Positions 3,360 through 31,645 are shown, numbered from the stretch's first letter. The stretch is 64,000 bases of DNA from Flavobacteriales bacterium (GCA_020635655.1 JACJZI010000009.1:79456-143455), one strand, 5' to 3'. Made by a program: numbers and translations. Notes: a model not told the origin generated them from the letters alone.

Positions 3360-3425
3360 TGTTACTCATGTATGGACATCGTACATTCCTGGTCCTTCCA
3401 TAGAATTGGAGATGCTCCTGACTGA

Positions 3426-5443: not shown

Positions 5444-5491
5444 CTCAGCAGTTGTTCGGATACGTGTATGTTGAATTCAATCGCACGAATT

Positions 5492-5836: not shown

Positions 5837-5848
5837 GGGTCAGGGTGT

Positions 5849-6813: not shown

Positions 6814-7146
6814 CTACCCCAACCCATTCTCCCTGGCCCACAGCACCAGGGCCACCTGGCCGCGGATGCCGTAGCGCTCGAAGATGCGCGTGCGCCACCT
6901 GCTGAGGGTGCCGGGGCATACGTGCATGCGGTCGCAGATCTCCTTGCCGGTGAGGCCCACATCCCGCGCACGGTCTCCGCCTCGGGACCCCGCGCCAAGG
7001 AGCAGCACCCCAGGGTCCACTTCGTGTGAACCTGCGGGAAAGCCAGGGTGCGCAGCCAGGAAAAGCGCGTACCTTCCCTTATGCGTCCGATCTATCTTGC
7101 TTGTCTCGCGATCTGCCAAACGCCCTACATCCCGATCATCGGGCAA
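6814..7146 (-). pseudogene. LuxR/GerE-type HTH C-terminal fragment (possible gene remnant or small regulator)
   Basis: The C-terminal GLTGKEICDRMHVCPGTLSRWRTRIFERYGIRGQVALVLWARENG fits the GerE HTH pattern. No receiver or sensor domain is present. The upstream part overlaps the divergent T9SS gene and contains a 40-nt repeat. Confidence 0.3.
6961..7000. repeat. 40-nt repeat, copy 1 (atcccgcgcacggtctccgcctcgggaccccgcgccaagg)
   Basis: 37/40 identity with 8672-8711 in direct orientation. Contains the imperfect palindrome ggtctccgcctcgggacc. Confidence 0.8.
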
Positions 7147-8649
7147 ACATCCTTCCAGGGTCTATTCGGCGGCTCCGGCCGGGAGGTGGGCTCTTCCGTA
7201 GTTCAGACAAGTGATGGGGGTTACGTGCTCGCCGGGTCCACCACAAGCACGGGCGCAGGGGAGGCTGATGTCCTGCTTATCCGGACCGACCTCAACGGCG
7301 ATACCCTCTGGACGCGGACATACGGTAGTCCCGGTCCTGAGTTTGCTAGTGCATTGCGGCGAACCAGCGATGATGGGCTGATCATTGCGGGCTTCACGGA
7401 TACGGCCAATGCAGGAGCCAACCTTGCTTTTCTAATGCGCACGGACGCGAACGGCGACCTTCTATGGACCAAGACCTATGGATTCGGGTCGGTCTCGGCC
7501 GCCACATCGGTAGAAGGAACATCCGATGGTGGCCTCATCATGGTGGGATACGCAGGTGGGTCCGGTTTTGGTCCCTGGATGTTCGTAGTCAAGACGGATG
7601 CCGTCGGGGATACGCTCTGGACAAGGCGATACCAACATCTCGGCGGTTCCATTGTGGCCACCTACGCATCTTCCGTGCAGGAGATGCCCGGCGGGGGATA
7701 CGTGGTGTTGGGCGATGCCAATGACCTGACCGTGTGCTACGTCATATTAGCTGAGAACGGTGCCAATTTGAGTTCCGGCACCTTCAGCGGAGTCCAGAAC
7801 TATGGCAATGACCTCAATGTCCTCGCACTGGCCAATGGTGGCTATGTGGTAGTTGGTACAACGGCCTCTCCTGGGCCCAATGCGCTCGACATCTTCATGA
7901 TCCGGCTCGATTCCCAGTTGCAGCAGGTTTGGACCCGGACCTATTTCGGCACGAACAGCGAATACGGAAAAGATGTGCGGCAAACGACGGATGGCGGGTT
8001 TGTGATCGTTGGTGTCACACACAGTTTCAATAGCTTCGGTAATGACCACGGTGATGCGTATCTGGTATGCACGGACTCGACCGGGAACCTGCTTTGGTCC
8101 AAGTCCTATGGCAGTATTCAATACGACGAAGGCAGATGTATTCTTCAGACACAGGATGGAGGTTTCATGATCTGTGGCATGCAGGACTTGACAGGAATGA
8201 ACGATATGAAGCTGTATATGGTGAAGGTCGACGCGAACGGCTCAAGTAGCTGCAACCAAGCAGACCCGGCCACGGTCACCTCCGCCATTGCATCGCAACG
8301 TACGTGGCTATCTACAAATTCTTTCATGGGTTGCAACATCGGTTCCCCGCAATTCACGTTCGGTCGTGGAATACCTTTCTCCGATCCATGCACCAATGGG
8401 ATCGAGGAAGACCCCTCGTTCCCGGACGTCCTGATCCAAGGCACCTGCATTCGTGACGAGATATGGATGACCGGCACGGACCAAGGCGATTTGATCATGC
8501 TCTATGACCTGACAGGCAGGTTGCTGAGGACGTACAAGGCGGAAGCGGAAAAGACCATGATCCCGAGTAAAGGGTTAGCCCCAGGCCAATTCATTGTGGT
8601 GTATTCGGATGGCCAAAAGAAGTACACGTTCAAGTTGACCATGTTGTAG
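7048..8649 (+). CDS. Secreted repeat protein with T9SS C-terminal sorting domain
   Basis: The signal peptide is better from the ATG at 7081 (MRPIYLACLAICQ). Recurring DGGY..G....G..D..L...D..G..LW...YG repeats and a C-terminal T9SS-type beta-sandwich tail. Paralogue of 11807-13450. Confidence 0.85.
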   Translation: MRSQEKRVPSLMRPIYLACLAICQTPYIPIIGQTSFQGLFGGSGREVGSSVVQTSDGGYVLAGSTTSTGAGEADVLLIRTDLNGDTLWTRTYGSPGPEFASALRRTSDDGLIIAGFTDTANAGANLAFLMRTDANGDLLWTKTYGFGSVSAATSVEGTSDGGLIMVGYAGGSGFGPWMFVVKTDAVGDTLWTRRYQHLGGSIVATYASSVQEMPGGGYVVLGDANDLTVCYVILAENGANLSSGTFSGVQNYGNDLNVLALANGGYVVVGTTASPGPNALDIFMIRLDSQLQQVWTRTYFGTNSEYGKDVRQTTDGGFVIVGVTHSFNSFGNDHGDAYLVCTDSTGNLLWSKSYGSIQYDEGRCILQTQDGGFMICGMQDLTGMNDMKLYMVKVDANGSSSCNQADPATVTSAIASQRTWLSTNSFMGCNIGSPQFTFGRGIPFSDPCTNGIEEDPSFPDVLIQGTCIRDEIWMTGTDQGDLIMLYDLTGRLLRTYKAEAEKTMIPSKGLAPGQFIVVYSDGQKKYTFKLTML

Positions 8650-8671
8650 GCATGCGGGACCTGGGTCTCAG

Positions 8672-8711
8672 ATCCCGCGCCGGGTCTCCGCCTCGGGACC
8701 CTGCGCCAAGG
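8672..8711. repeat. 40-nt repeat, copy 2
   Basis: Direct repeat of 6961-7000 (37/40). Lies in the convergent intergenic gap after the stop at 8649. The hairpin-capable core could also act as a terminator. Confidence 0.8.
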
Positions 8712-17464: not shown

Positions 17465-18720
17465 TGCAGGTGGATCAGTTCGTTCAGGACCTGGTCGCGG
17501 TCGCTCTCCGCCTGCACCAGGTCGGTCAGCAACGCCGTTCGTGCGTTCAGTACATTGAACAGGTCGTTCATCTTCAGCACGCCCTGTTCCAGTTCGGTGC
17601 GGTAGATGTTCACGAGCGCATCGTACCGCTCCAGCTGTGCGCGCAGGTCGTCGAGCAGGGAGTCCGCGTCGGACAGGGCCGCGCGCAGCCGGGCATGGCG
17701 TGCCTCCAACTGCAACGCGTAGTGGTCCGCCTGCACCTGGCGCGTGGCCTCCTGGATCGCGACCTTGTCATGGGCGAGCTTGCGCTGGCCGCCGTCGTAG
17801 ATGGGCAGGGAGAGTCCCGCGCCCAGGCTGCCTCCGAAATGCTGCGGGATGTCCGGCGCGGTCACGGCGTTCAGACCGAGATCGCCCATCACATCGACCT
17901 GTGGCCGGTAGGCCGCATCGATGGCCCGGTCCGCGATGCCGTTCCGGACCCGTTCCGCCTCGAACCGCCGCATCGCGGGCGAACGCGTCGCATCGAAGTT
18001 GACCGTGTCCTGCAGCGCGGGCGGGTCCAGTTCCACCGTCGCCGTGTCCATGATCCCGCATTGGATCCGCAACTGCGCCAGATCGGCCCGATAGCGCGTT
18101 CGGGCCCGTTTCACGGCGATGTGTCTTGCTTCCAGGCCGCTCCGGAGCACGAGCAGGTCGGTCTGCGGATAAATGCCACGGTCCACGAGCGCGGCGAGCA
18201 CCCGCTCCTCCGACCGCCACAGGTCCAGCTCCTGTTGCGCGAGGGTCGCCACGCGTTGGTCCGCATGGGCCTGCAGGAAGAGCGCGGTCACCGTCCGCTG
18301 GACCTCGATCCGTGTCGCGGCGATGTCCGTGCGCAGGACCCCGCGGTCCGCCACCACCGCATCGGTCCGCGCGCGGCGTTCGAAGCTCCGGAACAGGGGG
18401 ACCGATGCACCGACGACCGCGGAGTAAAGGCCGCCGTTCGTGATCGCCTGATCATAGCCCCAGCCGCTGCCCGATGGGGCGTAGAGCACCTGTCCCGTAG
18501 CGTTCACCTGGGGACCGAAGCGTGCCCGTGCGAGGGCGCTGTCCTTCTGCAGGATGCTCGCCTGACCGGTCAGGTCGCGCAAACCGGCATCATAGGCTTC
18601 GGCGGCTTCCAGGAAATCCACCAAGGTGGTCCGTTGTGCGGCCGCCGGATGGGTGAGCAACAGGGCCGCGAGCAGCGGAACGAGGACGATACTTCTCCTA
18701 TTCCCGGTCGATCCGCTCAC
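17461..18720 (-). CDS. TolC-family outer membrane efflux protein
   Basis: 419 aa with a signal peptide and duplicated coiled-coil/beta OEP repeats. Confidence 0.85.
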   Translation of the reverse strand: MSGSTGNRRSIVLVPLLAALLLTHPAAAQRTTLVDFLEAAEAYDAGLRDLTGQASILQKDSALARARFGPQVNATGQVLYAPSGSGWGYDQAITNGGLYSAVVGASVPLFRSFERRARTDAVVADRGVLRTDIAATRIEVQRTVTALFLQAHADQRVATLAQQELDLWRSEERVLAALVDRGIYPQTDLLVLRSGLEARHIAVKRARTRYRADLAQLRIQCGIMDTATVELDPPALQDTVNFDATRSPAMRRFEAERVRNGIADRAIDAAYRPQVDVMGDLGLNAVTAPDIPQHFGGSLGAGLSLPIYDGGQRKLAHDKVAIQEATRQVQADHYALQLEARHARLRAALSDADSLLDDLRAQLERYDALVNIYRTELEQGVLKMNDLFNVLNARTALLTDLVQAESDRDQVLNELIHLQ

Positions 18721-18741
18721 GGCCCCGAAGTTCGATCGATC

Positions 18742-19230
18742 CTAGTTGTCGTCGTCGTTCTCCTCGCCTTCATCCTCCTCCTCCACCGTCGACTTCAACA
18801 CGTTGCCCTGGGCATCGAACACCACTTCCATCGTGGTCTCCCCCTTCTCCAGTTCCACCTCGTAGCGCGGGCCATCCGGTGTCTCCACGGACTCGGCTTC
18901 CTCCATTTTGTAGCCGCCGTAGTTCTTGCCGATGGACTCGCGCACCGTGCCGGGCAGGTCCTGCACCTTCATGCGGCGTTCGGTCTCCGTCCAGGTGCCA
19001 TCGGTGCGGAAATTGGCCGAGACCTTCTCCCCGTTCAGCTGGAAGTTGGCTTCGTATTCCTCCTTCCCTTCCATCTCCCACTTCACCTTTTCCGCCTGCG
19101 CGAACCGCGCCTTGAATTGTTCCATCACCACATCGGGAATGTGGATCGTGCCATTGTTCTGGCTGCAGGCAACGCTCCCGAACAGGAGCATCGCACCGGA
19201 TAAGGTCAACAAGGTCTTCATGATGAGCAT
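18742..19230 (-). CDS. PepSY-like (DUF2874-type) periplasmic protein with acidic tail
   Basis: I trimmed the 286-aa track ORF to the ATG at 19230 (MLIMKTLLTLSGAMLLFGSVAC signal). Repeated short beta-hairpin modules and a C-terminal EEEDEGEENDDDN tail. Confidence 0.7.
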   Translation of the reverse strand: MLIMKTLLTLSGAMLLFGSVACSQNNGTIHIPDVVMEQFKARFAQAEKVKWEMEGKEEYEANFQLNGEKVSANFRTDGTWTETERRMKVQDLPGTVRESIGKNYGGYKMEEAESVETPDGPRYEVELEKGETTMEVVFDAQGNVLKSTVEEEDEGEENDDDN

Positions 19231-19260
19231 GTGTTTGGGGTCCGGTCGCAAGCTGGCACC

Positions 19261-19282
19261 CGATCCTGAACGGATCCTGGAT
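19261..19282. promoter_or_regulatory. Tandem 11-bp direct repeat cGATCCTGAAC GGATCCTGGAT upstream of the PepSY-like gene
   Basis: The same two 11-mers occur in swapped order at 21236-21257, upstream of the response regulator operon. An 11-bp period fits OmpR/PhoB-type sites. Confidence 0.4.
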
Positions 19283-19286
19283 GCGG

Positions 19287-20540
19287 TCAGGCCTCGGACA
19301 CCCGCAAGGTGTGCAGCCCGTCGGCGTGGTCGTAGCGGATGCGCCAGCCAGCCCCTTCCACGATCTCGCGGGCGATGGAAAGGCCCAGGCCCACGCTGCG
19401 GCCGCTCGGATCGGCCTGCGCGAAACGTTCGAACAACGTTCCGGGATCGACCGTGAGCGGCGCTCCGGAATTGGCGATGCGGAATCCTTCGCGCGTGATG
19501 GTGATCGTGATCCGCCCGCCGGGCCTGTTGTGTTGCACCGCGTTGCGCACCAGGTTGCCCACGAGCACCTCGGCCAGCATCGGATGCAGCCGCAACGTAC
19601 AAGGTCCGGTCGCGTCGATCGTCGCGGTGATCCGCTGGTCCGCGATCGGCCCTTCCAACAGTTCCAGTTGTTCGCGGAACAACGCCGGCCAGTCCACCAT
19701 GGCGGGCGGGAATTCCTGGTTGCCGATGCGGGCGAGCAGCAGCATGTTGGATACCGTGCGGCCCAGTCGTTCGCGTGCATCCAGCAGGCCCGCGAGCATG
19801 GTGGAACGCTCCTCATCGAGCCCGGGCATCTGGAGCAGCTCGTCCAATTTCCCCTGCATCACCGCCAGCGGCGTGCGCAGCTCGTGCGCGGCCTTTTCAG
19901 TGAAGCGTTTCTGCGCGGTCATGTCCGCCTGGATGCGGGCCATCATCCGCTCCAGCGCGGCGGCCAACGTGTCGAACTCGTCCGTGCCGGAGCGGGGCAG
20001 GTCGGGGATGGTGGAGACGTCCGCACGGAAGGTTCCCGTGGCGTCCACGATGCGGTGGAAGGGGCGCCAGAGCCGGTCGGCCGCCCAGCGGAAGAGCAGG
20101 AGATTGCCCACCAACAGCAACACCAGCAGGACACCCATCGTCCCGGCGATGGCCATCACCAGGTCCTCGGTCTCCACGAGACTGCGTCCCACCAACAGTA
20201 CTTGTGGTCCCCGCATCCCATCGGGCATGGGGAACCGTGCAATGCGCCAGGGCACCAGCTCGCCCTCCTCGTCCGTGTCGGCGATCAGCGTGTCGGCGAA
20301 GACCGGCTGTGCGCTGCGCCCGCTCCGCAGCAGGAGCAGTTGGTCCGGCGCCGTGGTCGGAGGCAGCGACTGTCCGTTCATGATGGCCGCGCGCACGCGC
20401 TCCGCATGATGCACGAGGAATTCGTCCACCTGGTCCTTCACGATGGCATTCACCAGCAGGTAGCCGAGCAACGTGCCCACCACGGCCACGGGAAGCGCCA
20501 GGGCCAGTTGGTAGCGGGCGGTGCGTTGCAGCAGCTTCAT
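19287..20540 (-). CDS. Sensor histidine kinase (2 TM, HAMP, HisKA, HATPase_c)
   Basis: I set the start at the ATG at 20540, which overlaps the regulator stop (ATGA). H-box HELRTPLAVMQG and G-box GLGLSIAREIVE. Confidence 0.9.
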   Translation of the reverse strand: MKLLQRTARYQLALALPVAVVGTLLGYLLVNAIVKDQVDEFLVHHAERVRAAIMNGQSLPPTTAPDQLLLLRSGRSAQPVFADTLIADTDEEGELVPWRIARFPMPDGMRGPQVLLVGRSLVETEDLVMAIAGTMGVLLVLLLVGNLLLFRWAADRLWRPFHRIVDATGTFRADVSTIPDLPRSGTDEFDTLAAALERMMARIQADMTAQKRFTEKAAHELRTPLAVMQGKLDELLQMPGLDEERSTMLAGLLDARERLGRTVSNMLLLARIGNQEFPPAMVDWPALFREQLELLEGPIADQRITATIDATGPCTLRLHPMLAEVLVGNLVRNAVQHNRPGGRITITITREGFRIANSGAPLTVDPGTLFERFAQADPSGRSVGLGLSIAREIVEGAGWRIRYDHADGLHTLRVSEA

Positions 20541-21217
20541 GGCTGCGACACGAACTTGTAGCCGATGCCGTAAACCGTGCGGATGTGGTCGCGGCAACCC
20601 TTGTCGGCCAGTTTCTTGCGCAGGTTCTTCAGGTGCGAATACAGCATGTCGTTCTGGTCGAAGCGTTCACCCAGGTCGCCCCAGACATGCTCCACGATGG
20701 CGCTGCGCGACAGCACCCGGTCCGTGTTGGCCACCAGGAACAGCAGCAGGTCCATCTGCATGGCGGTCAGCTCCACCGGCGCACCGTTCACCTCCACGCG
20801 CCGCTCCTCCGGCAGCACGCGCAACTCGTCCAGCTCGATCGCCCGGCGCCCGCGGAACCGTTTGCGCCGGAGCAGCGCCCGCAGGCGCGCCACCAGCTCC
20901 GGCAGGTGGAAGGGTTTGGCCAGGTAGTCATCGGCACCGAGGTCCAGGCCGTGCACCTTGTCGTCCAGCGATCCCTTCGCGGAGATGATCAGCACACCGG
21001 TCGACGGATCACGCTCGCGCAGGGCGCGCACGATCTCCAGACCCGATCCGCCGGGAAGTGTGATGTCCACGAGCACGGCATCATAGTCGTGCGCAGCGAC
21101 CTTCTCCCGAGCGGAAGGCAGGTCCGTGGCCGTCTCCACGAGGAAGCCCACGTCGGTCAGGTAGTTGTGCAACGACCGGCGCAGCTCCGGCTCGTCCTCG
21201 ATCACGAGCAGTTTCAC
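20537..21217 (-). CDS. OmpR/PhoB-family response regulator
   Basis: Receiver domain (VIEDEPEL...DAVLVDITLPG) plus a winged-helix C-terminus (TVYGIGYKF). Confidence 0.92.
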   Translation of the reverse strand: MKLLVIEDEPELRRSLHNYLTDVGFLVETATDLPSAREKVAAHDYDAVLVDITLPGGSGLEIVRALRERDPSTGVLIISAKGSLDDKVHGLDLGADDYLAKPFHLPELVARLRALLRRKRFRGRRAIELDELRVLPEERRVEVNGAPVELTAMQMDLLLFLVANTDRVLSRSAIVEHVWGDLGERFDQNDMLYSHLKNLRKKLADKGCRDHIRTVYGIGYKFVSQP

Positions 21218-21235
21218 CCCTGCAAGCTAGGTGGC

Positions 21236-21257
21236 GGATCCTGGATGGATCCTGAAC
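21236..21257. promoter_or_regulatory. Tandem 11-bp direct repeat GGATCCTGGAT GGATCCTGAAC upstream of the RR-HK operon
   Basis: Lies 19-40 nt upstream of the regulator start codon. A weaker third unit ggatccttcct is at 21303-21313. Matches the units at 19261-19282. Confidence 0.4.
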
Positions 21258-21327
21258 GATGGCATCGCGACACGAACGCCGGATGCCGGACCGAGCTCGG
21301 TTGGATCCTTCCTGATGAAGCGCTCGC

Positions 21328-22050
21328 TCACTCCACCACCACCTGCCGCACGTACCGCTGCCCACCCTGCTCCAACACCAGGTTGTACACCCCGGAAGCC
21401 ACATCCTGAAGCGGGATCGTCAACCGGCCCTCGCCTTTGCGCCGCTGCATCTGAACGCCGCGCATGTCGATGAGATCCGCCGACCAATCGCCCGGTGGAA
21501 GGTCGATCAGCACGAGCCGGTTCGTGGGATCCGCGTGGATCACGGGTGCCTGGACCGCTCGATCGCGGATGCCGGTGGTCTGGGTGGTGTCGCACCCCTG
21601 CGCCGGCGCCTGCCCATAGTCGAACACCACCGAGGTGCAGGGGAATTGCTGGAACCATCCGTTGGGATCCACGATGTCGGCCGTGGGTGCGTACCACACC
21701 GCATCGAAAGGCCCGCTGCCCCAACCGGTGGTATCGAGATTCACGATCAGGTGGGCACCGTCCTTCAGGCCGATCTCGGTGCTGATGAGGTAGTTCGACC
21801 CCATGGGATCGATGATCACGGTACCGCCCGGTTCCACCCAGACCGAGTTCTCGGCACCCGTGAGGTAGAGGGTGTCGCCCCCGCATACCCAGAAGCAGGT
21901 ATAGCCCGCATCCTGTGTGGTGGTGCTCGAGACCACGATGGTTGAGGGACTGATCGTCGTGGCGCATCCGCTCAGGACGAAACTGCCGCATTGTTGACCA
22001 TGGGCTGATAGCGCGAGCGGCACGAGCAGGGAGGCGGTGAGCGTTCTCAT
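21328..22050 (-). CDS. Small secreted protein with T9SS C-terminal sorting domain
   Basis: I trimmed to the ATG at 22050 (MRTLTASLLVPLALSAHGQ signal). T9SS-type tail ...GVYNLVLEQGGQRYVRQVVVE. Confidence 0.8.
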   Translation of the reverse strand: MRTLTASLLVPLALSAHGQQCGSFVLSGCATTISPSTIVVSSTTTQDAGYTCFWVCGGDTLYLTGAENSVWVEPGGTVIIDPMGSNYLISTEIGLKDGAHLIVNLDTTGWGSGPFDAVWYAPTADIVDPNGWFQQFPCTSVVFDYGQAPAQGCDTTQTTGIRDRAVQAPVIHADPTNRLVLIDLPPGDWSADLIDMRGVQMQRRKGEGRLTIPLQDVASGVYNLVLEQGGQRYVRQVVVE

Positions 22051-22097
22051 GGGAGCCTGTTGTGCGATCAAATTAGCGAACCATCCGCACACCGCAA

Positions 22098-22250
22098 CTA
22101 GCGCTTCCTGCTCGCCTTGGCCTCCGGGTTGAACGCCAGGCAGCGGTCGATCCAAAACTCGAGGTCGGATTCGGAATCGTAGCCCGAGGGTTCGATGCGG
22201 AGGTAACCGAACATGGGCTGGAATGGACGGTCACCAGGTCGAGGTGTAGC
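22098..22250 (-). pseudogene. 3' fragment of a tfoX-like gene (duplicate of the 3' end of 26250-26597)
   Basis: Encodes ...GYLRIEPSGYDSESDLEFWIDRCLAFNPEAKASRKR, versus GYLRIDPAGYDSEADLEFWIDRCLAFNPEAKASRTRVG in the intact gene. A 54-nt core (22107-22160 vs 26265-26318) matches 52/54. No N-terminal half is present. Confidence 0.85.
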
Positions 22251-22327
22251 CACCATTGCCGCAATAGGACATGGCCCATTGCCTTCTGATCGATACCATG
22301 GACAAGATCGCTCGTTAAGCGCTATTC

Positions 22328-23719
22328 CTATTCCTTGACCATGGCCAACGTGGTTCTCGAACCACCTATCGCCGTGCATAGATAGAGGCCCGGAGCCAAC
22401 ATGGATGCATTCCAACGGACCTGGGTGCGACCATTGACCGGTATTCGCTCCAATTCCCGACCAGAAACATCCTGGATCAGAAGCATATCGTAGTCATGTC
22501 CTTGTGCCATAGCTATCGTTACCTCGTTCGTGAACGGAACTGGTGTGAGCATCAGGTCGCTCGGGCGATCATGTTCCTCGATCGATACGCTTCCCGCTTG
22601 TTCCCAATACACATAGTCCCCGTCGTCATAGATGCCCAATAGTATGTCCAGGTCACCATCGCCATCCAGGTCGGCAACGCTCAGATATTCCGTTTGTCCG
22701 ATATTCGGATCCGTCAGCCCCGGCAATGCCGCGTGTGCCTGAAAGAACGGTGCTTGCGCCGTGCCCACGTTCTGGAAATAGGCCAGACTGTCGTAGCCGG
22801 CCAGCAGAAGGTCCTCGTCACCATCCGCATCCAGGTCAATGAAGGCGTGAGCATCCGTGGCGATATTCCCAAGGGATAACCCGAACGGATCCAGCACCGA
22901 TGGACCGAAGGACGGGTTCATGGCAGAACCGATATTCTCATAGTAGATCATGTCGGTATGGTAGGTATCATCGTTGTATTGTGAGATCACGAGATCGAGG
23001 TCCCCATCACCATCCAGATCGACCAAGGAAGGCTGGCCACCGAATTCATAGATCGTGATCGGCGCCAGGCCGAACGGATCTGTTTGTTCATTACCGAATG
23101 CCGGAGACATCGCACTGCCGATGTTCTCCACATAGATGAAATAGCTCATGTCGTACACCGTGGTATCTTCAGCCAGGATCAGCAGATCCTGATCACCGTC
23201 CCCATCGAGGTCCGCGAATACCGGGAGCAGAGATTGACGGCTAGTGTTCTGTCCGAAGCTTGTCGCATCCAATCCGAACGGATCGTTGACGATTGATCCG
23301 AACGAGGGGTTCTGCGCCGTGCCGATATTGGGTTGGAAGCGGATCGAACTGTCGTTGTAATCGGCAGTGAAGAGGTCCAGGTCCGAATCGCCATCGATGT
23401 CGACCAATTGACAGAATGGCGCATACAAGTCGTAGGAATAAGGGATCACCATACCGAAAGGGTGCATCACGGGTGGAAGAAAGCTCAGCGATTGCGCACG
23501 GGTCGATGTAGTGCTCGTGCACAATGTCACCGCAACGCAAGAACTAAGGAGCAATTGCCGCTTGGTCCATGCATCGAGCCCGGCCCACTGCCGGGCCAGC
23601 CGCGAACGAATTCGGAGGACCTGTTCCGGGCTTTCAGCTCGACCGACCATGCGATCGATCTTCCGGCACAGCCCTTTGATCTGACGGCGTATCCTGGCAT
23701 TGTATCGCTGCGTTCTCAT
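22328..23719 (-). CDS. FG-GAP/VCBS repeat protein with T9SS C-terminal sorting domain
   Basis: Repeated DLDGDGD.DL motifs and a T9SS tail. It has an unusually long basic N-terminal region before the hydrophobic signal segment. The start overlaps the upstream stop by 4 nt. Confidence 0.85.
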   Translation of the reverse strand: MRTQRYNARIRRQIKGLCRKIDRMVGRAESPEQVLRIRSRLARQWAGLDAWTKRQLLLSSCVAVTLCTSTTSTRAQSLSFLPPVMHPFGMVIPYSYDLYAPFCQLVDIDGDSDLDLFTADYNDSSIRFQPNIGTAQNPSFGSIVNDPFGLDATSFGQNTSRQSLLPVFADLDGDGDQDLLILAEDTTVYDMSYFIYVENIGSAMSPAFGNEQTDPFGLAPITIYEFGGQPSLVDLDGDGDLDLVISQYNDDTYHTDMIYYENIGSAMNPSFGPSVLDPFGLSLGNIATDAHAFIDLDADGDEDLLLAGYDSLAYFQNVGTAQAPFFQAHAALPGLTDPNIGQTEYLSVADLDGDGDLDILLGIYDDGDYVYWEQAGSVSIEEHDRPSDLMLTPVPFTNEVTIAMAQGHDYDMLLIQDVSGRELERIPVNGRTQVRWNASMLAPGLYLCTAIGGSRTTLAMVKE

Positions 23720-24876
23720 GGTCTCCGGTTTGAGGTGGGTCGGGGCGCCCAGAAGGTCTGTTCGGGCGTGGATAGTCCGTTCAAATGGTCCCTGCTCAAC
23801 GTGTTCAAGATGTTCGGCCTTAGCAGATCCGGAAGTACGTGCACGTCATAGATCTCCTCTACGGAAGCTTGATAATGGATCCGTCCCAATTCACGGCCCG
23901 AACGTAGATCGATGATGGCCAGACCGGCATGTGCGTTCGCGATATTGGACCCGAGCGTTCCAAAGGAACTGGAGTCCTTTCGAATGGAAGAAAGACCAAC
24001 GAACAAGTGGTCCTTGTGCAAGGACAATCCGCGCACGAAACCATTCAGCCGGATGATCGGTCGTATCGCACCTGTGCGCCGGTCCACTTCCACCACTTCG
24101 CCAGTGGCGGACAGGAGCAGGTAGAGCCGGTCCTCATGAATCCGGGGTGAATGGGGCATGGCCAATCTAGATGCCAGGATCTCGTTCGTGGATACGTCCA
24201 TCAGTACACCCGAGCCGGGTATCGTGCTTCGCCAGCTTTTAGGCATATCACCCGTGCCGAACGCCGTCACGTACTTCGGCAGGCCCTTGTCCATGGCCAG
24301 TCCGTTCAGGTGGCATCGATCGCCTGAGGCGATGCTTGAGATGTACGGCGGTCTCCAATAAGGGTTGAAGTTGTGGTCCGTGCCGATAGTGGCCAGGCAA
24401 CTGAACGCCGTGATCACCCCGTGAAGGACCCCGCTCTGATCGAACGCAAGATCGTGCAGATCGACCGGTCCGGTATGAAAGGTGACCCTCGGCATGAAGA
24501 GCGTATCGTAGGTATCCGGCTTGTTCGGATAGTGCGATGCAAGGCTCTTCGACCCTGCAAAGCGGATCACCTCCTCCTCACATGCCAGTGCCATACGCCC
24601 TGTGGAATAGGCCAAACCCATGGCCTTCTTGAACGTACGCGTCAGTTGGACCAGTCCGCCACCGGCTGCCGGTGAAATGAAAATCACTTTGCCGGCCTGG
24701 TAAGTGGTCAGCGCTACTGAGCAACCCAGCGCAGCGAGTGTCTCAGGTACCGCTCTGTCGTAAGAACAGGCAAAGGGTTTCGTCGTTCCTGCCATACCGG
24801 GCACTATCAAATCTATGTCCGGATGACCTAAGTTCAAATGCCACATTGGCGCCCCTGTTCCAGGTCGGCCGATCAC
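23716..24876 (-). CDS. TIGR03032-family conserved hypothetical protein (beta-propeller-like)
   Basis: The N-terminal FACSYDRAVPETLAALGCSVALTTYQAGKVIFI matches the STYQAGK-type signature I recall for TIGR03032/DUF4915. The family has no known function. Confidence 0.7.
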   Translation of the reverse strand: MIGRPGTGAPMWHLNLGHPDIDLIVPGMAGTTKPFACSYDRAVPETLAALGCSVALTTYQAGKVIFISPAAGGGLVQLTRTFKKAMGLAYSTGRMALACEEEVIRFAGSKSLASHYPNKPDTYDTLFMPRVTFHTGPVDLHDLAFDQSGVLHGVITAFSCLATIGTDHNFNPYWRPPYISSIASGDRCHLNGLAMDKGLPKYVTAFGTGDMPKSWRSTIPGSGVLMDVSTNEILASRLAMPHSPRIHEDRLYLLLSATGEVVEVDRRTGAIRPIIRLNGFVRGLSLHKDHLFVGLSSIRKDSSSFGTLGSNIANAHAGLAIIDLRSGRELGRIHYQASVEEIYDVHVLPDLLRPNILNTLSRDHLNGLSTPEQTFWAPRPTSNRRP

Positions 24877-24986
24877 AAGGCTAGATCCCGTGCAAGATCT
24901 CCGCTCCGAGGTCGATCGTCCGACAATGGTCTATCCGGCATTCGCGGTGGACAATACCCTTACTTTCACAGAACAACCCGTCCGGT

Positions 24987-26243
24987 TTGTCAGGAACTAG
25001 TGGTCCCACCTCTGCCCAAGGCAGCAGGATGTCCAAGCTGTCCAGCTATTTCTCGGCGATACCGGACCACATAGACATCCGGAATTACCGCTTCTATCTC
25101 GTTGGACACGTTGCCTACCACTTCGCCCTGACCGTTCACACGATGTGGGCGGTCCTGTTCACGATCGTGGGAGTTCTCCCCCTGGCGGTATTCAACTTGT
25201 TCAGCATCTCATTGTTCGTTCTGTGCATCTATCTGAACCGCCGGGGCAAGCATATGACCCCCACCGTTCTGGGCATGACGGAGGTGGTCGCGCATCAGGT
25301 GTTCGCGTGCCACCTTCTGGGCACGGGGTCCGGCTACCAGCTCTATATCCTGGTTGTTTCGCTGTATCCCTTCATCATGCCTTCCTGGAAGGCCTGGATC
25401 AAAGTGGGCCTCTTTCTGTTCACCCTTGCTGGGTTCCTTTACATCCAAATGGCGATCAGCGCGGGAACGCCCTTGGTCACATTGGACCCCGTGCTGCTCC
25501 GATGGTTGATGATCACGAACATCATCTTCAGCTTCGTATGCCTGGGTATCTGGGGCACCTACTTCAACTTGGCCGTGGATCGGACGGAAGCGGAACTGGA
25601 CGGTGCTTACAGCAAGGTGGAGAACCTGTTGCTGAACGTCCTACCGGCCCCGATCGCGGAACGGTTGAAGGAAAAAGAACGGGTGATCTCCGATCGTTTC
25701 TCGGATGCCTCCATCCTGTTCGCCGACCTGGTCGGGTTTACGCGTTTCTCGGAACGTATGCCACCCGATGAGCTGGTCGCTATCCTGAACACCTACTTCA
25801 CCGCGTTCGACGATCTGGCAGAAAAGCACGGACTTGAAAAGATCAAGACCATTGGGGATGCTTACATGGTGGCGGCCGGTGTGCCCCAGCCCGATCCAGG
25901 CCATGCGCATCGCATGTGCGCCTTCGCTCTGGAGATGCTCGCGGTCCTGCAACGATGTAATGTGGAATTGGGCCATGCGCTCGAACTTCGGATCGGTACG
26001 CACTGCGGTCCTGTGGCCGCCGGCGTCATCGGCACCCACAAGTTCGCCTACGATCTGTGGGGCGATACGGTGAACACCGCCTCCCGGATGGAGTCGCATG
26101 GCGTAGGTGGCAAAGTCCATGTGACCGAGGAGCTATACCAAGCCTGTCGCAATGCCTATTCCTTCGAAGAACGTGGTGTCATCGAAGTGAAAGGGAAAGG
26201 TCCAATGAGGACATACTTCCTTCGTGGCTCTGGGCCCGCTTGA
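24987..26243 (+). CDS. Membrane-anchored class III adenylate cyclase
   Basis: About 6 N-terminal TM helices, then a CYCc domain: ILFADLVGFT, KIKTIGDAYMVAAG, WGDTVNTASRMES. An alternative start is at 25029. Confidence 0.88.
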   Translation: MSGTSGPTSAQGSRMSKLSSYFSAIPDHIDIRNYRFYLVGHVAYHFALTVHTMWAVLFTIVGVLPLAVFNLFSISLFVLCIYLNRRGKHMTPTVLGMTEVVAHQVFACHLLGTGSGYQLYILVVSLYPFIMPSWKAWIKVGLFLFTLAGFLYIQMAISAGTPLVTLDPVLLRWLMITNIIFSFVCLGIWGTYFNLAVDRTEAELDGAYSKVENLLLNVLPAPIAERLKEKERVISDRFSDASILFADLVGFTRFSERMPPDELVAILNTYFTAFDDLAEKHGLEKIKTIGDAYMVAAGVPQPDPGHAHRMCAFALEMLAVLQRCNVELGHALELRIGTHCGPVAAGVIGTHKFAYDLWGDTVNTASRMESHGVGGKVHVTEELYQACRNAYSFEERGVIEVKGKGPMRTYFLRGSGPA

Positions 26244-26249
26244 TCATCC

Positions 26250-26597
26250 CTACCCTACCCTTGTCCTGCTCGCCTTCGCCTCCGGGTTGAACGCCAGGCA
26301 GCGGTCGATCCAGAACTCCAGGTCGGCCTCGCTGTCATAGCCGGCGGGGTCGATGCGGAGATAGCCCTTCATCGGACGGCCACCGTGCACCATCTGCGTG
26401 GCACCTTCACGCTTCGTCAGCTGCTCCACCGCGTCCGGCCCCACGCGTGCCATGAGCCCGCCCTGGTAGAAGCCGATGCACATCTTGTCATCGACCATGT
26501 AGCAGTAGCCGCCGAACATCTTCTTGCCGACCCACTGCACCCTGCGCCGGTGCAGGGCCTTGTCGATGCGCTCGAGGAGGTATTCGTCGACGGGCAT
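26250..26597 (-). CDS. TfoX N-terminal domain protein
   Basis: I trimmed to the ATG at 26597. KKMFGGYCYMVDDKMCIGF is typical of the TfoX_N domain. Confidence 0.8.
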   Translation of the reverse strand: MPVDEYLLERIDKALHRRRVQWVGKKMFGGYCYMVDDKMCIGFYQGGLMARVGPDAVEQLTKREGATQMVHGGRPMKGYLRIDPAGYDSEADLEFWIDRCLAFNPEAKASRTRVG

Positions 26598-26728
26598 GGG
26601 CGGGTACGTATCGCACCAAAGTACCGCTATTCGAAGAAGCCCTCGGACCTGTAAAGAACACCGCACATCCAGTGGCTGAAGGTGTAGCACGTTCGCGGAA
26701 CGACCATTAGTTTCTACATCAGAAACGA

Positions 26729-29248
26729 ATGGTCATGCGCTATTCCACTACGCTCCTTCTTGCTCTTCTGGTCCACACGCTCGCCGCGCAGCGCCTGGTG
26801 CCCTATGGCCAGGGAGCGGCGGGAGTGCTGGTCGAGGACCTGCTCGTGTTCAACAACGAACTCACCGTGGGAGGGTGGTTCTACCAGCTCGACCAGGTTC
26901 CGGCATACGGGATCGCCGCGATCGACATGAACGGCAACGTGACCCAGATCGGCCCGTTCGTCTCCAATTCGGTGTGGGTATATGACATGGCCCTTTGGGG
27001 ATCGGACCTGGCCGTCGCCTATAGGGACATCGGCATCCGCGGCGTGGCCACCTGGGATGGGACCTCCTGGACCCAGCTTGGCCCTGATTTCGATGATCCA
27101 CCCAAGCGGGTCGCGGTGTTCAATGGCGAACTGTACGCGGCGGGCGATTTCACCCTGTGCGGGAACGTTCCCCTATCACGCGTGGCCAAATGGGACGGCG
27201 GCGCCTGGGTGCAGGCAGGCACGCCCTTGGACGGGGAGGTGCAAGCCATGACCGTCCACGATGGCGACCTCTACATCGGAGGCCTGTTCACCAACACGAA
27301 CGGAACGACATTGCTCCACGTGGCCCGGCTGTCCGGGTCGACCTGGTCAAGTCTGGGAGCGGGGATGAACGCCACGGTGGAGGACCTGCGCTCGGTGGGC
27401 AATGAGCTGTGGATGGTCGGCGAATTCACCTACAATGGCGATTCTGCCGTGGCCTTGCCGATGAGCGCGCGTTGGGATGGCGCACAGTTCCTACCCCTGT
27501 CACCCACGCCCTTGAGCGGTAGTGACCGGCGGATCCTGCATGCGCCCAGCTATGGTTACTTCCTGTCGGATGCCGAACGGACGCTGCTGGACCCGGGACC
27601 TGGCGAGCGGAGCCTCAACATGCGCGGGCTTCGCGCCATGGCGCAATTCAACGGACTGACCTTCGCGGGTGGGGACCTCAGACATTACTCCTACCGGGAA
27701 ATGAAGGACCTCGGAAAGGTCCTTCCCGGAGAGGATGCGCACATCCTGGACCTCGCAGGCATGCGTGTGCGCGTGGACGCCCTGGGAGGGATCGGCTATG
27801 ATCTGGATACCGATGCTCCGGGATACGAGGTTCCCGCCGGCTCCGGCGCTTCGACCGTGTTCGATCATGGGCTTTGTGCCGTGGCCGTGGCCAATGGCGC
27901 ACTTCGGGTCGTGCCAGCGGGATATGAATCCCAATTCCCGGATGGCATGACTCCGGGTCCCTGGTGCGCGGACACCTCGGATCAGTATTGGGACCGCTAC
28001 ACACAGGTCTGGCCCATGGATAAAGGCACCGTCTGGGACCACAATGCCCATTGGAACGACCCGGGCTATGTGCCTTCCTATCCCATCGCCGCCTGGCCGG
28101 GTGACGGCGACGCAGGCAACGATGAACCGGCCACACTCGCACCCTACCTGGATGCGAATTCGGACGGCGTGTTCGACCCGAGCAGCGGGGACATCCCTCT
28201 CTTTCGGGGCGATGCCGCGGTCTACCAGGTCAGTTCCGACCAACGCACCGCGGCCTGGACCGGCCTACCTCCCATGGGCGTGGATGTGCATGCGATGACC
28301 TATGTCTGCAATGATTCTCCGTCCGACACGAACTATCAGGTGATGTACGAACACTACCGGGTGGTCAATCGCTCCAGTGAGACCTACGATACACTGTGGT
28401 TGGCATCGCGAACGGACACGGATATCGGCGGATCCAGTGATGACTACGTGGGCTGTGATACGGTGCTGAACATGGCCTTTGGCTACAATGGGGACGCCAT
28501 TGATGAGACCGGCTATGCCCAAGGTTATGGTGAGCACCCACCGGCACAAGGACTCGTTGCACTGAATGCGGATCTCCATGCATTCGCCCCGATCGGTGGG
28601 TCCGTATCAAGCGACCTCACAAATGCGGTTACGTACTACAACTACGCGATCGGTCTTCATGCCGACGGGTCTCCGATGGTCGATCTGTTGACCAATGCGG
28701 TCACCCATTATCGCTATCCGGGCGATCCCAACGACCCATCCCAATGGTCGGAGCAATCCGCCATGAACGCACCGGGCGACCGTCGCTTCATTGCTTCCTA
28801 CGGCCCCTGGTACAACGTGGCCCCCGGAGACACCATCTGCCTGGACCTGGCCTTCGTCTTCGCCCAGGATACGCTCGGGGACAACCTCAGCAGCGTCACC
28901 CTGCTGAAGCAACGCGCCGCCGCCGTGCGGGCCTGGTACGATCAACATGCGACCGCATGCAACACCTACATCCCGCTCGCCGTTCCTGATCACCCAAGCG
29001 GCCCTGCACCATCGATCACGCTCCGGCCCAACCCCACCACCGGACCGATCACCTTGGGCGGGGCCGTGCAGGAGGTCGAACAGGTGCGCGTGCGCGATCT
29101 GCTCGGACAGGTCGTTCTCGCTCGACCGGTCACGCCGGCTCAGGAACGGATCACCCTGGACCTGGGCGATCTGGCATCCGGCACCTATCTGGTGGAATTG
29201 ATCGCGCCAAGGACGCAAGAGGCTTTGCGCGTGGTGGTGATGCGTTGA
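26729..29248 (+). CDS. Large secreted protein with T9SS C-terminal sorting domain
   Basis: 839 aa. Signal peptide MVMRYSTTLLLALLVHTLAAQ and tail LRPNPTTGPITLGG...GTYLVELI. Confidence 0.88.
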   Translation: MVMRYSTTLLLALLVHTLAAQRLVPYGQGAAGVLVEDLLVFNNELTVGGWFYQLDQVPAYGIAAIDMNGNVTQIGPFVSNSVWVYDMALWGSDLAVAYRDIGIRGVATWDGTSWTQLGPDFDDPPKRVAVFNGELYAAGDFTLCGNVPLSRVAKWDGGAWVQAGTPLDGEVQAMTVHDGDLYIGGLFTNTNGTTLLHVARLSGSTWSSLGAGMNATVEDLRSVGNELWMVGEFTYNGDSAVALPMSARWDGAQFLPLSPTPLSGSDRRILHAPSYGYFLSDAERTLLDPGPGERSLNMRGLRAMAQFNGLTFAGGDLRHYSYREMKDLGKVLPGEDAHILDLAGMRVRVDALGGIGYDLDTDAPGYEVPAGSGASTVFDHGLCAVAVANGALRVVPAGYESQFPDGMTPGPWCADTSDQYWDRYTQVWPMDKGTVWDHNAHWNDPGYVPSYPIAAWPGDGDAGNDEPATLAPYLDANSDGVFDPSSGDIPLFRGDAAVYQVSSDQRTAAWTGLPPMGVDVHAMTYVCNDSPSDTNYQVMYEHYRVVNRSSETYDTLWLASRTDTDIGGSSDDYVGCDTVLNMAFGYNGDAIDETGYAQGYGEHPPAQGLVALNADLHAFAPIGGSVSSDLTNAVTYYNYAIGLHADGSPMVDLLTNAVTHYRYPGDPNDPSQWSEQSAMNAPGDRRFIASYGPWYNVAPGDTICLDLAFVFAQDTLGDNLSSVTLLKQRAAAVRAWYDQHATACNTYIPLAVPDHPSGPAPSITLRPNPTTGPITLGGAVQEVEQVRVRDLLGQVVLARPVTPAQERITLDLGDLASGTYLVELIAPRTQEALRVVVMR

Positions 29249-29251
29249 ACC

Positions 29252-29800
29252 CTACTTCACCCCCACCCCTTTCTCCGCCAGCGCCACCATCTCGTCGCAG
29301 AAGAGCTTCACCCGCGCCCAGTCGGTGTACTCGTGGTCCTGCGTGGTGTCGGTGCTGCCCCCCTCACGCTTCACGATCTGCTTCATCATGAATCGCTTGA
29401 AGAAGTCGTACTCGACGTACTTCAACGCTCCGGCGATCTGCTCGACCCGCTTCGGCGTCCATTGGCAGGCATCCGTGAACTGGCGCGTGATGTCCATTGC
29501 CTCCTCCATGGCCTTCGGCTCACCGGAAAGGATGTGGAGGCACACCGAGAAGAAGGCGTTGGGCCGCGCCTCGATGGCGGCCTTGTTGGCCAGGATGTAG
29601 TGCTTCAACGCGGTCGCATAGTGGCCGATGTGCACGGACCCGCCGAGCAGGACCAGGTCGAAATTCTCCGGTGAAGGTGGTGCATCGATGGCGTTGCAAC
29701 AGGAGACGGCATGGCCGAGCGATTGGAGATGGTCCTCCATGGCCCGCGCGATCTTGCGGGTCTGGCCCTCGACGGTGGCGTAGATGATGAGGATGTGCAT
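29252..29800 (-). CDS. hemG: Flavodoxin-like protoporphyrinogen oxidase HemG homologue
   Basis: I trimmed to the ATG at 29800. MHILIIYATVEGQTRKIA...GGSVHIGHY...IAGALKY..YDFFKRFMMK..YTDW is collinear with E. coli HemG as I recall it. Confidence 0.7.
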   Translation of the reverse strand: MHILIIYATVEGQTRKIARAMEDHLQSLGHAVSCCNAIDAPPSPENFDLVLLGGSVHIGHYATALKHYILANKAAIEARPNAFFSVCLHILSGEPKAMEEAMDITRQFTDACQWTPKRVEQIAGALKYVEYDFFKRFMMKQIVKREGGSTDTTQDHEYTDWARVKLFCDEMVALAEKGVGVK

Positions 29801-29928
29801 GTTCTTCGGGGATGGGTGGATGCGGGGGTGCCAAGCTATCCGGCCCTGCCGATCGCCACACTGATCACCGTCAGACCCGGGTCCGACGCGACTACTTTTG
29901 ATGGCATATCGATCAAGCACCTCCATCC

Positions 29929-30315
29929 ATGAACCCCGTCGTCCATTTCGAAATGCCTGCCGAGGACCGGCAGCGCGTGAGCAAATTCTACTCCACGGTA
30001 TTCGGCTGGCAGATGCAGCAGCTAGGCCCCGAGATGGGGGACTACCTCCTGGCCGGCACCACCGAGGTGGATGAGGACCGGATGATCAAGACGCCCGGCG
30101 CGATCAACGGCGGGTTCTTCCAGAAGGCGCCGGACAACGCGCATCCCTCGCTCACCATCGCCGTGGACGACATCCACGCCCATGTGGAGAAGGTGAAGCA
30201 GGGCGGCGGAACGGTGCTGCACGAGCCGCAGGAGATCCCCGGCATCGGCCTCTATGTGTCGTTCCTCGACTCCGAGGGCAACCGGGTGAGCATGCTGCAG
30301 CCGACGAACATGTAG
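29929..30315 (+). CDS. VOC/glyoxalase-family protein
   Basis: 128 aa. NPVVHFEMPAED...YSTVFGW...GIGLYVSFLDSEGNRVSMLQ is typical of the glyoxalase/bleomycin-resistance fold. Confidence 0.8.
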   Translation: MNPVVHFEMPAEDRQRVSKFYSTVFGWQMQQLGPEMGDYLLAGTTEVDEDRMIKTPGAINGGFFQKAPDNAHPSLTIAVDDIHAHVEKVKQGGGTVLHEPQEIPGIGLYVSFLDSEGNRVSMLQPTNM

Positions 30316-30337
30316 GCCGGGAGGCCTACGACACCCC

Positions 30338-31645
30338 TCAATGCACCAGGTCACCGGCCAGGCGCCGCAGCTCGGTCTCGGCCACCTTCGCATTGTACCG
30401 CGCGGTGACCAGTCGGGACGCGGCCTCCGCGAAGGTGCTCTGGGCCTCCTTCAATTCGACGATGCTGCTGAGCCCAGCTTGGAAGCGTGCTTCCGCGATG
30501 TGCAGCACTTCGCGTGCCGCCGTGATGTTCTCTTGCTCCAGGGCCAGGATCCCCTTGCGGCTCTGCAGGTCGCGCCAGGCCTTGCGCGTGTCGGCATCGA
30601 GTTGCTGGCGTTCGCTTTCCAGGTCCAGTCCCGCGTTCAACAGATCGAGCTTCGCGTTCCTGATCGCGGTGTTGGTGCGAAGGCCGTTGAACAGGGGCAC
30701 CGAGGCGGTGACACCCCAGGTGTAGCCGAGGTTCTGGTTCAGCAGGATGAAGCTGGCGTTGTTGGTGGAACGCGTGAACTGGTAGGCGCCGTTCAGGTCG
30801 ATGGTGGGCCAGCGTGTCGCCTGGGTCGCACGCAGGCCGAGCTCCGCCGCCCGCTGCCGGCTGCCAGAGAGCAGCAGCGTGTTGTTGCCGGCGGTGGCCG
30901 CGTTCTGGAGCGCCGCGAGGTCGGGGTCGTAGCGGATGATCACGGTGTCCTCCACCGCGATCGTCGTGGTCGGGGCGATCGCCAGCATGCGGCACAACTC
31001 CAACTTGGCGTTGTCCAGATCGGCTTGGGCGGAAAGGGCCGCGGAGCGCTGCGCATTGAGCTGCGTGCGCGCCAGCAGCACATCGAGCTTCGAGCCGGAA
31101 CCGTTGTCGAGCCGGCGTTGCGCAATGGTGCCCACCTCCTCCGCCACCGCGATCTGCTCATTGATCGCCTCCAACGCCTGTTGCTGCTGTACGACCGTAT
31201 AGTACGTGCCGATCAGGCCGGACAGCACATCCTCGATGCGCACCTTCAGCGCCAGTTCACCCTCCGTGGTCAGCTCCTCCAACCGCTTCTTCGTGGCGAA
31301 CATGCCCAGGCCGTCGAACACGGTCCAGTTCAGGGCCACATTGCCGCTCAGGTTGTCCGACGTGGCACCGGTGCGGTCCACCTCGGTGTTGTTCGACAGT
31401 TCCTGCCGCGCATGACCGGTGGTGGTGGCGTAGGCCCCGTTCAGGTCCACGCGGGGCAGCATGCCGGCGTTGCCGATGGTGTTGTCGTTCGCCGCCTGTT
31501 CGGCCGTGTTCCGCGCGATACGGATGTCGAAGTTGTTCTTCAGCACCAGCTCCACGGCGTGGTCCAATGTGAGCAGGCTGTCCTGGGCCTGAACGCCGAT
31601 CATCGCGCAACAGGCGACCGTCCCGATGATCGTGCGCGCCCTCAT
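30338..31645 (-). CDS. TolC-family outer membrane efflux protein
   Basis: I trimmed the 559-aa track ORF to the ATG at 31645, which overlaps the RND stop (ATGA). Signal peptide and OEP repeats. Confidence 0.85.
   Translation of the reverse strand: MRARTIIGTVACCAMIGVQAQDSLLTLDHAVELVLKNNFDIRIARNTAEQAANDNTIGNAGMLPRVDLNGAYATTTGHARQELSNNTEVDRTGATSDNLSGNVALNWTVFDGLGMFATKKRLEELTTEGELALKVRIEDVLSGLIGTYYTVVQQQQALEAINEQIAVAEEVGTIAQRRLDNGSGSKLDVLLARTQLNAQRSAALSAQADLDNAKLELCRMLAIAPTTTIAVEDTVIIRYDPDLAALQNAATAGNNTLLLSGSRQRAAELGLRATQATRWPTIDLNGAYQFTRSTNNASFILLNQNLGYTWGVTASVPLFNGLRTNTAIRNAKLDLLNAGLDLESERQQLDADTRKAWRDLQSRKGILALEQENITAAREVLHIAEARFQAGLSSIVELKEAQSTFAEAASRLVTARYNAKVAETELRRLAGDLVH

Follow-up and report, generated by a model that had tools for sequence, protein, structure and literature searches.

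Recent insertion of a three-gene block at the 3′ end of a tfoX-like gene in a Flavobacteriales genome, probably by homology-driven recombination

How does a block of genes of foreign composition come to lie behind a conserved gene, between that gene and a second copy of its own tail, when the block holds no recombinase? A tfoX-like gene in a Flavobacteriales bacterium raises this question. We analyzed 64,000 nucleotides (the window; GCA_020635655.1, JACJZI010000009.1:79456-143455, contig C24 here) of a 3.07-Mb, 24-contig metagenome-assembled genome (MAG) that is 85% complete with 2.7% contamination and is referred to as G000. The name tfoX-like is used as a family label only, taken from the match of the protein to TfoX_N. 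The original prediction, made from the sequence of the window, saw here a lower-GC cargo of three genes and the classic footprint of integration at a gene's 3′ end. Our results show that the block was inserted behind tfoX, at its 3′ end, and that the fragment is the scar of this event; it did not arise by decay of a tandem paralogue. As to mechanism, we favour, at a probability of about 0.58, a recent, lineage-specific insertion that was driven by homology and independent of a recombinase over the arrival of a site-specific element.

The two copies of the tfoX tail form a direct repeat (22106-22208 and 26264-26366, positions of the window) in the same orientation, ungapped over 103 nt and identical at 89/103 positions (86%). 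Identity is uneven along the repeat, with 57/60 positions matching beside the stop codon and about 72% further away, and weaker in-frame homology with a 9-nt indel extends to about 22262. BLAST gives the repeat an E value of 2e-28 in the window and 7e-28 in the whole 3.07-Mb genome, where just these two copies are found. The fragment spans TfoX residues about 63-113, slightly more than originally described, and as described it runs in the orientation of the intact gene and keeps its own stop codon (TAG, 22098-22100). Its C-terminus reads ...AKASRKR, and that of the intact gene ...AKASRTRVG. The intact gene matches Pfam TfoX_N (PF04993) at 56.4 bits against a cut-off of 30.1, and proteins of this type, 113-115 aa long, match TfoX_N alone, with no match to TfoX_C.

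An empty site was found in relatives. tfoX was searched in all 131 genomes of the genus, and one of them, G091, which we use as the empty-site reference, has a single tfoX (113 aa, ending ...KR) that is 99% identical, with no fragment and a flat GC profile. The gene order there is kinase, regulator, 240-aa gene, tfoX, flavodoxin and glyoxalase. The exact 113-aa protein is encoded on eleven contigs. Ten of these were examined; they stem from two NCBI assemblies and from ENA and Logan assemblies, at least six samples in all, include L094-L100, and share the arrangement and breakpoints of G091, with the 240-aa gene directly beside a single tfoX. This adjacency was the test that the original prediction had set beforehand, and it bears out the reading of the fragment as a scar. 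Over residues 1-113 the TfoX of the window is 99% identical to the protein of the empty-site genomes. Apart from the window, the occupied form was found just in one other assembly, GCA_020635595.1. Its contig there is 474 kb long and, over 16 kb, shows 69 substitutions and 21 indels relative to the window (99.4% identity). Both the occupied and the empty states exist in nature. This bears on the idea of an assembly or binning artefact, in which two strains would have been joined chimerically in the MAG. The contamination of 2.7% and the mosaic of identity to G091 described below would be in keeping with such a join, but the same occupied structure recurs in the second assembly with the differences just given, the junctions are in frame with intact genes, and the repeat copies are diverged, so an assembler would neither collapse nor invent them. 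We give this explanation hardly any weight.

Two other comparisons added little. Two tfoX matches 31 kb apart in the genus genome G038 were considered as an att pair and rejected, both being full-length distant paralogues with no common tail. In the first 30 genus genomes, homologues of the 240-aa gene and of the 839-aa gene on the other side of tfoX were scattered and did not exceed 51% identity, which made their synteny uninformative.

The crossover could be placed closely on the scar side by a three-way comparison of the fragment, the intact gene and G091. From the 240-aa gene across the intergenic DNA and the stop codon up to the informative sites 22119 and 22161, G091 agrees with the fragment; from 22169 onward its agreement is with the intact gene. 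Since the switch falls between 22161 and 22169, the scar-side crossover lies within the 7 nt at 22162-22168 and the insert measures 4,158 bp, bounded by 22162/8 and 26320/6. Mapping by the drop in identity, as first suggested, was thus successful on this side. The gene-side junction lies somewhere in 26264-26326, its position imprecise because 26319C, 26337A and 26361A are also present in the empty-site alleles L096 and L101. At 22128/26286 both copies in the window have G, and all ten empty-site contigs have A. The codons for TRVG and the stop (26250-26263), together with all DNA downstream of them, are island DNA, and homology to the empty site stops at 26263/26264. The left flank (20000-22160) is 99.6-99.9% identical to the empty-site contigs, the body of tfoX (26327-26590) 98.5-99.6% and the right flank 97.3-98.0%. 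With both sides of the insert 98.5-99.9% identical to the empty-site contigs, the insertion is recent. We considered whether tfoX came in from a third lineage together with the 839-aa gene and the right flank, but do not favour this; the tfoX body resembles the left flank, and the right flank stands at 97.3-98.0%.

The scar is a chimera of donor and recipient, in which the native tail changes in register, at 22162-22168, to a diverged tfoX. We refer to its distal, native part as B′ and to its island-proximal part as the P arm (Table 1). Over its 95 nt, the P arm matches each tfoX available at 72-75% identity and is equidistant from them (75% to G091, 73.7% to G139). Fifteen of its codons can be aligned, and in these we count six synonymous changes, one being a serine switch (TCC/AGC), along with three conservative replacements (E/D, S/A and S/A). 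Because the adjoining flank differs by at most 0.4% from the empty-site contigs, the divergence of the P arm predates the insertion, and the arm arrived with the insert. The coding type of its substitutions and its in-frame indels further indicate that it derives from a once-functional, diverged tfoX, and not from decay in place or from an att arm free of constraint. In the last 56 nt the two copies of the window differ at three sites, all synonymous, beside an arm that differs by 28%.

These data also speak to a tandem ancestry, under which two tfoX genes with the cargo between them would be ancestral, the downstream copy would have decayed and the relatives would have lost the block by recombination between the copies. 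Deletion between direct repeats would indeed leave the same empty junction as an insertion. However, tandem full-length tfoX genes, which the original prediction had named as the finding that would speak for such an ancestry, occur in 0 of the 131 genus genomes, and DUF4915, the domain of the second cargo gene, is present in 2 of the 131. All eleven empty-site sequences have one structure, the occupied form is confined to one lineage, the cargo is foreign in GC and in GC at third codon positions (GC3), and an arm diverged by 28% beside a flank diverged by at most 0.4% cannot be the in-place decay of a recent duplicate. A tandem origin is very unlikely on this evidence, and both the decay of a tandem paralogue and an assembly artefact are essentially excluded.

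No recombinase domain was found in any open reading frame (ORF) of the island with Pfam or NCBIfam, in agreement with what had been noted at first, and the 4.2-kb island contains no remnant of an integrase, an excisionase or a transfer gene. In the assembly, the tyrosine recombinase family PF00589 has two matches, both Xer-type proteins of about 305 aa in housekeeping contexts, one beside hpf/tuf, and the serine recombinase family PF00239 has none, though control genomes scored. The island ends and the repeat core have no further copy in the genome, a 26-nt pattern for the attP junction had 0 matches in JGI metagenome contigs, and a partial inspection of tfoX loci showed no integrase-bearing occupant. 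These recombinase negatives rest on an assembly that is 85% complete, with other genomes unscreened for integrases at tfoX.

The chief competing explanation takes the block for what is left of a site-specific integrative element, or for a satellite of one. An integrase of the tyrosine or serine type would have inserted a circular element, its attP carrying a replacement tfoX tail, into the 3′ end of tfoX, and the integrase would since have been lost, as in cis-mobilizable elements (CIMEs), or be supplied in trans. Much of the locus has the appearance that such an element would leave: the repeats equal the 3′ end of the target, the target is restored, the empty site is precise, the cargo is of foreign composition, and a near-identical 56-nt core lies beside a strongly diverged arm, as in many attP/attB pairs. 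Integrase-less derivatives that keep attL and attR, as well as stacked partial targets, are documented (PMC5704250; bioRxiv 10.1101/2020.12.28.424599). The negative searches above tell against it, namely the lack of any integrase, excisionase or transfer remnant in a genome with Xer-like recombinases alone, the uniqueness of the island ends, the absence of the attP junction from the metagenome contigs and the lack, in the loci inspected, of an occupant with an integrase, as does the coding-type substitution pattern of the P arm.

At least five other genes in this genome, four of them found by a genome-wide scan, have a diverged duplicate of their last 30-50 codons 0.6-10 kb further downstream on the same strand (Table 1). 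G091 is empty at the pirin-like (5.2 kb) and thioesterase-like (10 kb) loci and in a different state at the crtI-like and fdhA loci; at the former it has the outer copy alone, about 170 nt after the gene. The fdhA tail copy of G091 (G091:C2:263753-263909) follows about 0.65 kb of different DNA and carries a 24-nt insertion. In our genome, the crtI-like copies delimit a 138-aa gene and a 641-aa gene for a type IX secretion system (T9SS) protein (C22:39506-45500). Scar lengths and boundaries vary between loci and between genomes. At the crtI-like, pirin-like and thioesterase-like loci the side of the intact gene is 97-98% identical to G091, and the scar with its flank 78-92%, a pattern as expected if the scars were to mark the ends of recombination tracts. 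One scar concerns a 5′ end: that of hsdM, of a type I restriction-modification system (MPLKKSDLYSTIWQS...), is duplicated about 0.7 kb upstream and fused to the end of a 288-aa ORF (C21:188538-190168), with two small low-GC genes bracketed by the copies. Such a 5′-end duplication is unlike what an integrase targeting 3′ ends would do. Under the site-specific explanation, the five or more scars at unrelated genes, together with the one at a 5′ end, would need several different lost integrases.

The surroundings of tfoX also appear recombinogenic. Over most of the contig, identity between G000 and G091 is 80-86%, and it rises to 93-99.9% in two blocks, C24:74842-119371 (from about 4.6 kb before the window start to 39916) and C24:135821-141224 (56366-61769). 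The tfoX locus lies inside the first, a tract of about 45 kb, and the block borders coincide with indels. The identity profile indicates that the locus is probably a mosaic of intense, recent homologous exchange between species, or alternatively the blocks may represent a shared flexible region.

Taken together, the lack of an enzyme, the origin of the inner arm in a functional orthologue, the recurrent and variable scars (one of them at a 5′ end) and the recombinogenic region lead us to favour an insertion independent of a recombinase. Of the original reading, the insertion at the 3′ end stands. The evidence does not establish a site-specific element: the four lines just named fit a homology-driven insertion at least as well, and all in all homologous recombination is the likelier cause, a site-specific element being a possible but doubtful origin of the block. 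Under homology-driven insertion, incoming DNA from a related lineage would have carried the cargo beside the 3′ part of a diverged tfoX, and the host's homologous recombination machinery would presumably have joined it to the chromosome by crossing over within the roughly 60 nt at the end of tfoX that the two shared. This could have proceeded as a Campbell-type single crossover of a circularised fragment, or as a one-sided homologous import with an illegitimate far end, after which a later tract of the empty-site type would have overwritten the outer scar. Either route would yield an intact tfoX with a changed C-terminus (KR to TRVG), the cargo, and a chimeric relic, with a piece of foreign tfoX on its inner side and, on its outer side, the native tail in continuity with the native downstream gene. 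All models require an illegitimate junction of the cargo to tfoX at about codon 63, a junction at the tfoX end and at least one homologous crossover in the tail. On this account the block is not self-mobile, and the genome has gained genes in this way repeatedly, the tfoX islet being one case.

Several points weigh against this account. The sharp layout of a conserved core and a diverged arm is what the attP/attB pairs of site-specific elements look like, and true tfoX orthologues diverge alike in both segments (70-79% in the P-arm segment against 72-81% in the last 18 codons). Judged from these alignments, one crossover with a single diverged orthologue would by itself leave the asymmetry unexplained; gene conversion, repeated cycling in and out or a second recombination tract would be needed. 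The signature of the P arm was found in none of the 131 genus genomes and in none of the best 120 of 371 TfoX homologues that were checked for a donor, and the closest homologues of the cyclase and of DUF4915 are located in other contexts, although the donor lineage may simply be unsampled. The census of scars covers one genome with no control genome, and their frequency cannot be called unusual. Finally, an integrase acting in trans could be missed in an assembly that is 85% complete, the more so as mobile elements often fail to bin.

The hypothetical donor would be recognizable by a full-length tfoX encoding ...PRPGDRPFQPMFGYLRIEPSGYDSESDL... with a TRVG end, located beside cyclase, TIGR03032 and FG-GAP genes. 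A reconstructed attP peptide was also compared with the best 120 of the 371 homologues; its top match was the host's own type and none had the PRP/FQP insertions.

Among known systems, the closest in form are islands at gene 3′ ends made by integrative and conjugative elements (ICEs), integrative and mobilizable elements (IMEs) and CIMEs, the last being derivatives of the first two that keep attL and attR with their integration and transfer genes gone (PMC5704250). The tfoX islet shares with them direct repeats of the target tail, an intact target, foreign cargo and a precise empty site, and like CIMEs it retains two att-like ends without integration or transfer genes. It differs in having no decayed integrase or transfer module and no cognate integrase in the assembly, and in that the inner arm of its repeat comes from a functional orthologue that had diverged. 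A parent or helper ICE or IME, with a cognate integrase acting on the same att site, was not found in the 85%-complete assembly. As an integrase-less islet with att-like repeats, the tfoX islet is of a kind already known. We know of no described att site in a small TfoX_N gene, our search of the literature not having been exhaustive. Tycheposons, which are islands of Prochlorococcus, use tyrosine recombinases and mostly target tRNA genes (bioRxiv 10.1101/2020.12.28.424599). Their islands resemble those found here in having cargo-only segments between partial target copies, for which the two stacked cassettes of the crtI-like locus are an example, and differ in that the targets here are varied protein-coding genes and no such recombinase is present.

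A further likeness is with Campbell-type or homology-facilitated insertion. Homology-facilitated illegitimate recombination and insertion-duplication are said to have been observed in the laboratory in naturally transformable bacteria, reportedly by de Vries and Wackernagel in 2002 and by Prudhomme and co-workers in the same year. The tfoX islet has in common with such insertions a short homologous anchor, no site-specific enzyme, the entry of foreign DNA through a partial duplication or junction inside the anchor gene, and chimeric copies. It differs in that the asymmetry of core and arm needs an extra step and in that no donor was found. Natural transformation is, to our knowledge, not known in this lineage.

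Table 1. Positions of features at the tfoX locus and of other duplicated gene ends in the same genome; positions with no contig name are those of the window.
Feature	Position	Strand	Description
Histidine kinase	19287-20597	-	
Response regulator	20537-21217	-	
Left flank, 240-aa protein	21328-22050	-	T9SS C-terminal sorting domain; NCBIfam TIGR04183 23.7 bits
Scar, distal part (B′)	22098-22161	-	native last 21 tfoX codons and stop (...EFWIDRCLAFNPEAKASRKR, stop), continuous with native downstream DNA; three-way alignment
Scar-side crossover interval	22162-22168		left of it, match to empty site; right of it, diverged arm
Scar, island-proximal part (P arm)	22169-22262	-	tfoX-like codons about 63-92, in-frame indels
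Cargo 1, FG-GAP/VCBS-repeat protein	22328-23719	-	T9SS-type C-terminal tail; Pfam FG-GAP_3 2.6e-19, FG-GAP 4.3e-10
Cargo 2, TIGR03032/DUF4915 protein	23716-24876	-	Pfam DUF4915 7.5e-104; NCBIfam TIGR03032 347.7 bits
Cargo 3, membrane class III adenylate/guanylate cyclase	24987-26243	+	Pfam Guanylate_cyc 3.4e-63
Intact TfoX_N-only gene	26250-26597	-	115 aa; Pfam TfoX_N
Gene-side repeat copy	26264-26366		103-nt direct repeat
839-aa beta-propeller protein	26729-29248	+	T9SS-secreted
Flavodoxin-like gene	29252-29926	-	
Glyoxalase-fold gene	29929-30315	+	
fdhA tail duplication	1880-1997 and 3447-3563		62% identical; cassette of a GTPase and a two-transmembrane (2-TM) protein between
crtI-like oxidoreductase	C22:39506-41065		last ~30 codons repeated at 41660 and 43828; two stacked cassettes
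Pirin-like gene	C2:110472-111350		tail copy 5.2 kb downstream (locus C2:110472-116659)
Thioesterase-like gene	C22:192265-192717		tail copy 10 kb downstream across a resistance-nodulation-division (RND) efflux operon (locus C22:182135-192717)
C12 gene	C12:23773-24534		tail copy 0.7 kb downstream

The island consists of three intact cargo genes, with spacers of just about 120 nt and 110 nt. That its GC content is lower than its surroundings, as first noted from hand counts, was confirmed: the FG-GAP gene has 54.9%, the DUF4915 gene 56.9% and the cyclase gene 57.0%, together 55-57%, against 64.7% in tfoX, 64.0% in the left neighbour and 62.1% in the genome. GC3 is 0.64-0.73 in the three cargo genes (0.64 in the FG-GAP gene) against 0.80-0.92 in most neighbours. 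No tRNA gene was found in the window, and Rfam gave no match in 18000-31000.

The first two cargo genes overlap by 4 nt. TIGR03032/DUF4915 has its closest relatives elsewhere at no more than 57% identity; in the search for related loci, identity peaked at 54% in genome contigs and at 50% in metagenome contigs, with no tfoX nearby, and an exact-protein look-up found no record of the protein. An FG-GAP gene directly follows TIGR03032/DUF4915 in more than 20 MAGs of Flavobacteriales, Saprospiraceae and other Bacteroidota. The two form a conserved two-gene module to which no function is assigned. One genome, G090, groups the cyclase (73% identical), DUF4915 (57%) and FG-GAP genes, which are all co-directional there, and the closest homologues of the cyclase (62-73%) sit in unrelated contexts. 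The match of the island's cyclase to MASE7 is weak (6.2e-5, under the cut-off). A Pycsar reading of the cyclase was rejected: it has a generic PycC match of 1.3e-15 against 3.4e-63 for Guanylate_cyc, and its neighbours are DUF4915 and FG-GAP genes, with no match to an effector model. The cyclase gene runs towards tfoX, and just 6 nt separate the stop codons of the two genes.

Across tfoX from the island, on its 5′ side, the 839-aa gene forms a second and independent indel, one that the original prediction did not mention. This gene is missing from every empty-site contig, where 28 nt of intergenic DNA stand in its place, and no repeat flanks it. Further along, at 30320/30333 between the glyoxalase-fold gene and an efflux operon, the window is without a 2.2-kb segment encoding a methyltransferase and a protein with an HGSNAT_cat domain, which G091 and the longer empty-site contigs carry.

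Other repeats and variable segments were seen in the genome. After a 305-aa gene at C12:214869-216074 there is a tandem array of five units with a 225-nt period, each unit repeating the gene's final 33 codons with 92-100% identity in protein sequence. At C12:216522-217882 a 163-nt intergenic direct repeat (87% identical) surrounds about 1 kb of DNA of 42% GC in a neighbourhood of 66% GC. Within the window, a 43-nt direct repeat (6958-7000 and 8669-8711) was considered as a further scar and left uncounted, being a GC-rich hairpin and not a gene end; it looks like a terminator or an element of the repetitive extragenic palindromic (REP) type. Its copies are 91% identical, flank an orphan 533-aa ORF (7048-8649, GC3 0.66, no Pfam match) and are absent from G091. 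At 2266-6778 lies a variable segment that is also missing from G091. Its genes, for an AAA_15/AAA_21 (OLD/AbiEii-like) ATPase, a MazG-like protein and an HNH_2 nuclease, give it the look of a defence cluster.

What the organism has gained by the insertion is a secreted FG-GAP protein with its TIGR03032 partner, a cyclase with a membrane sensor and a TfoX with a slightly altered C-terminus. Judged from the arrangement of the genes, a cyclase converging on tfoX with such a small gap could dampen tfoX expression. In Proteobacteria, cAMP-CRP and Sxy act in partnership, and by analogy the placement of a cyclase beside a TfoX-family gene might be functionally meaningful, a weaker addition to the argument.

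Flanks made of duplicated gene ends are usually read as proof of a mobile element driven by an integrase. Should such att-like footprints arise from homologous recombination alone, some annotated degenerate integrative elements would have been misread, and the scars would be a usable marker of gene gain in uncultured Bacteroidota. Going further, and only tentatively, it is possible that this genus routinely captures genes behind conserved genes, and sometimes before them, anchored by homology and without a recombinase, each capture leaving a relic of the anchor's end. Such captures might build integron-like stacks of cassettes, as at the crtI-like locus, with no integrase or attC-type site, and the tfoX islet would then be the freshest example, with both of its states still segregating.

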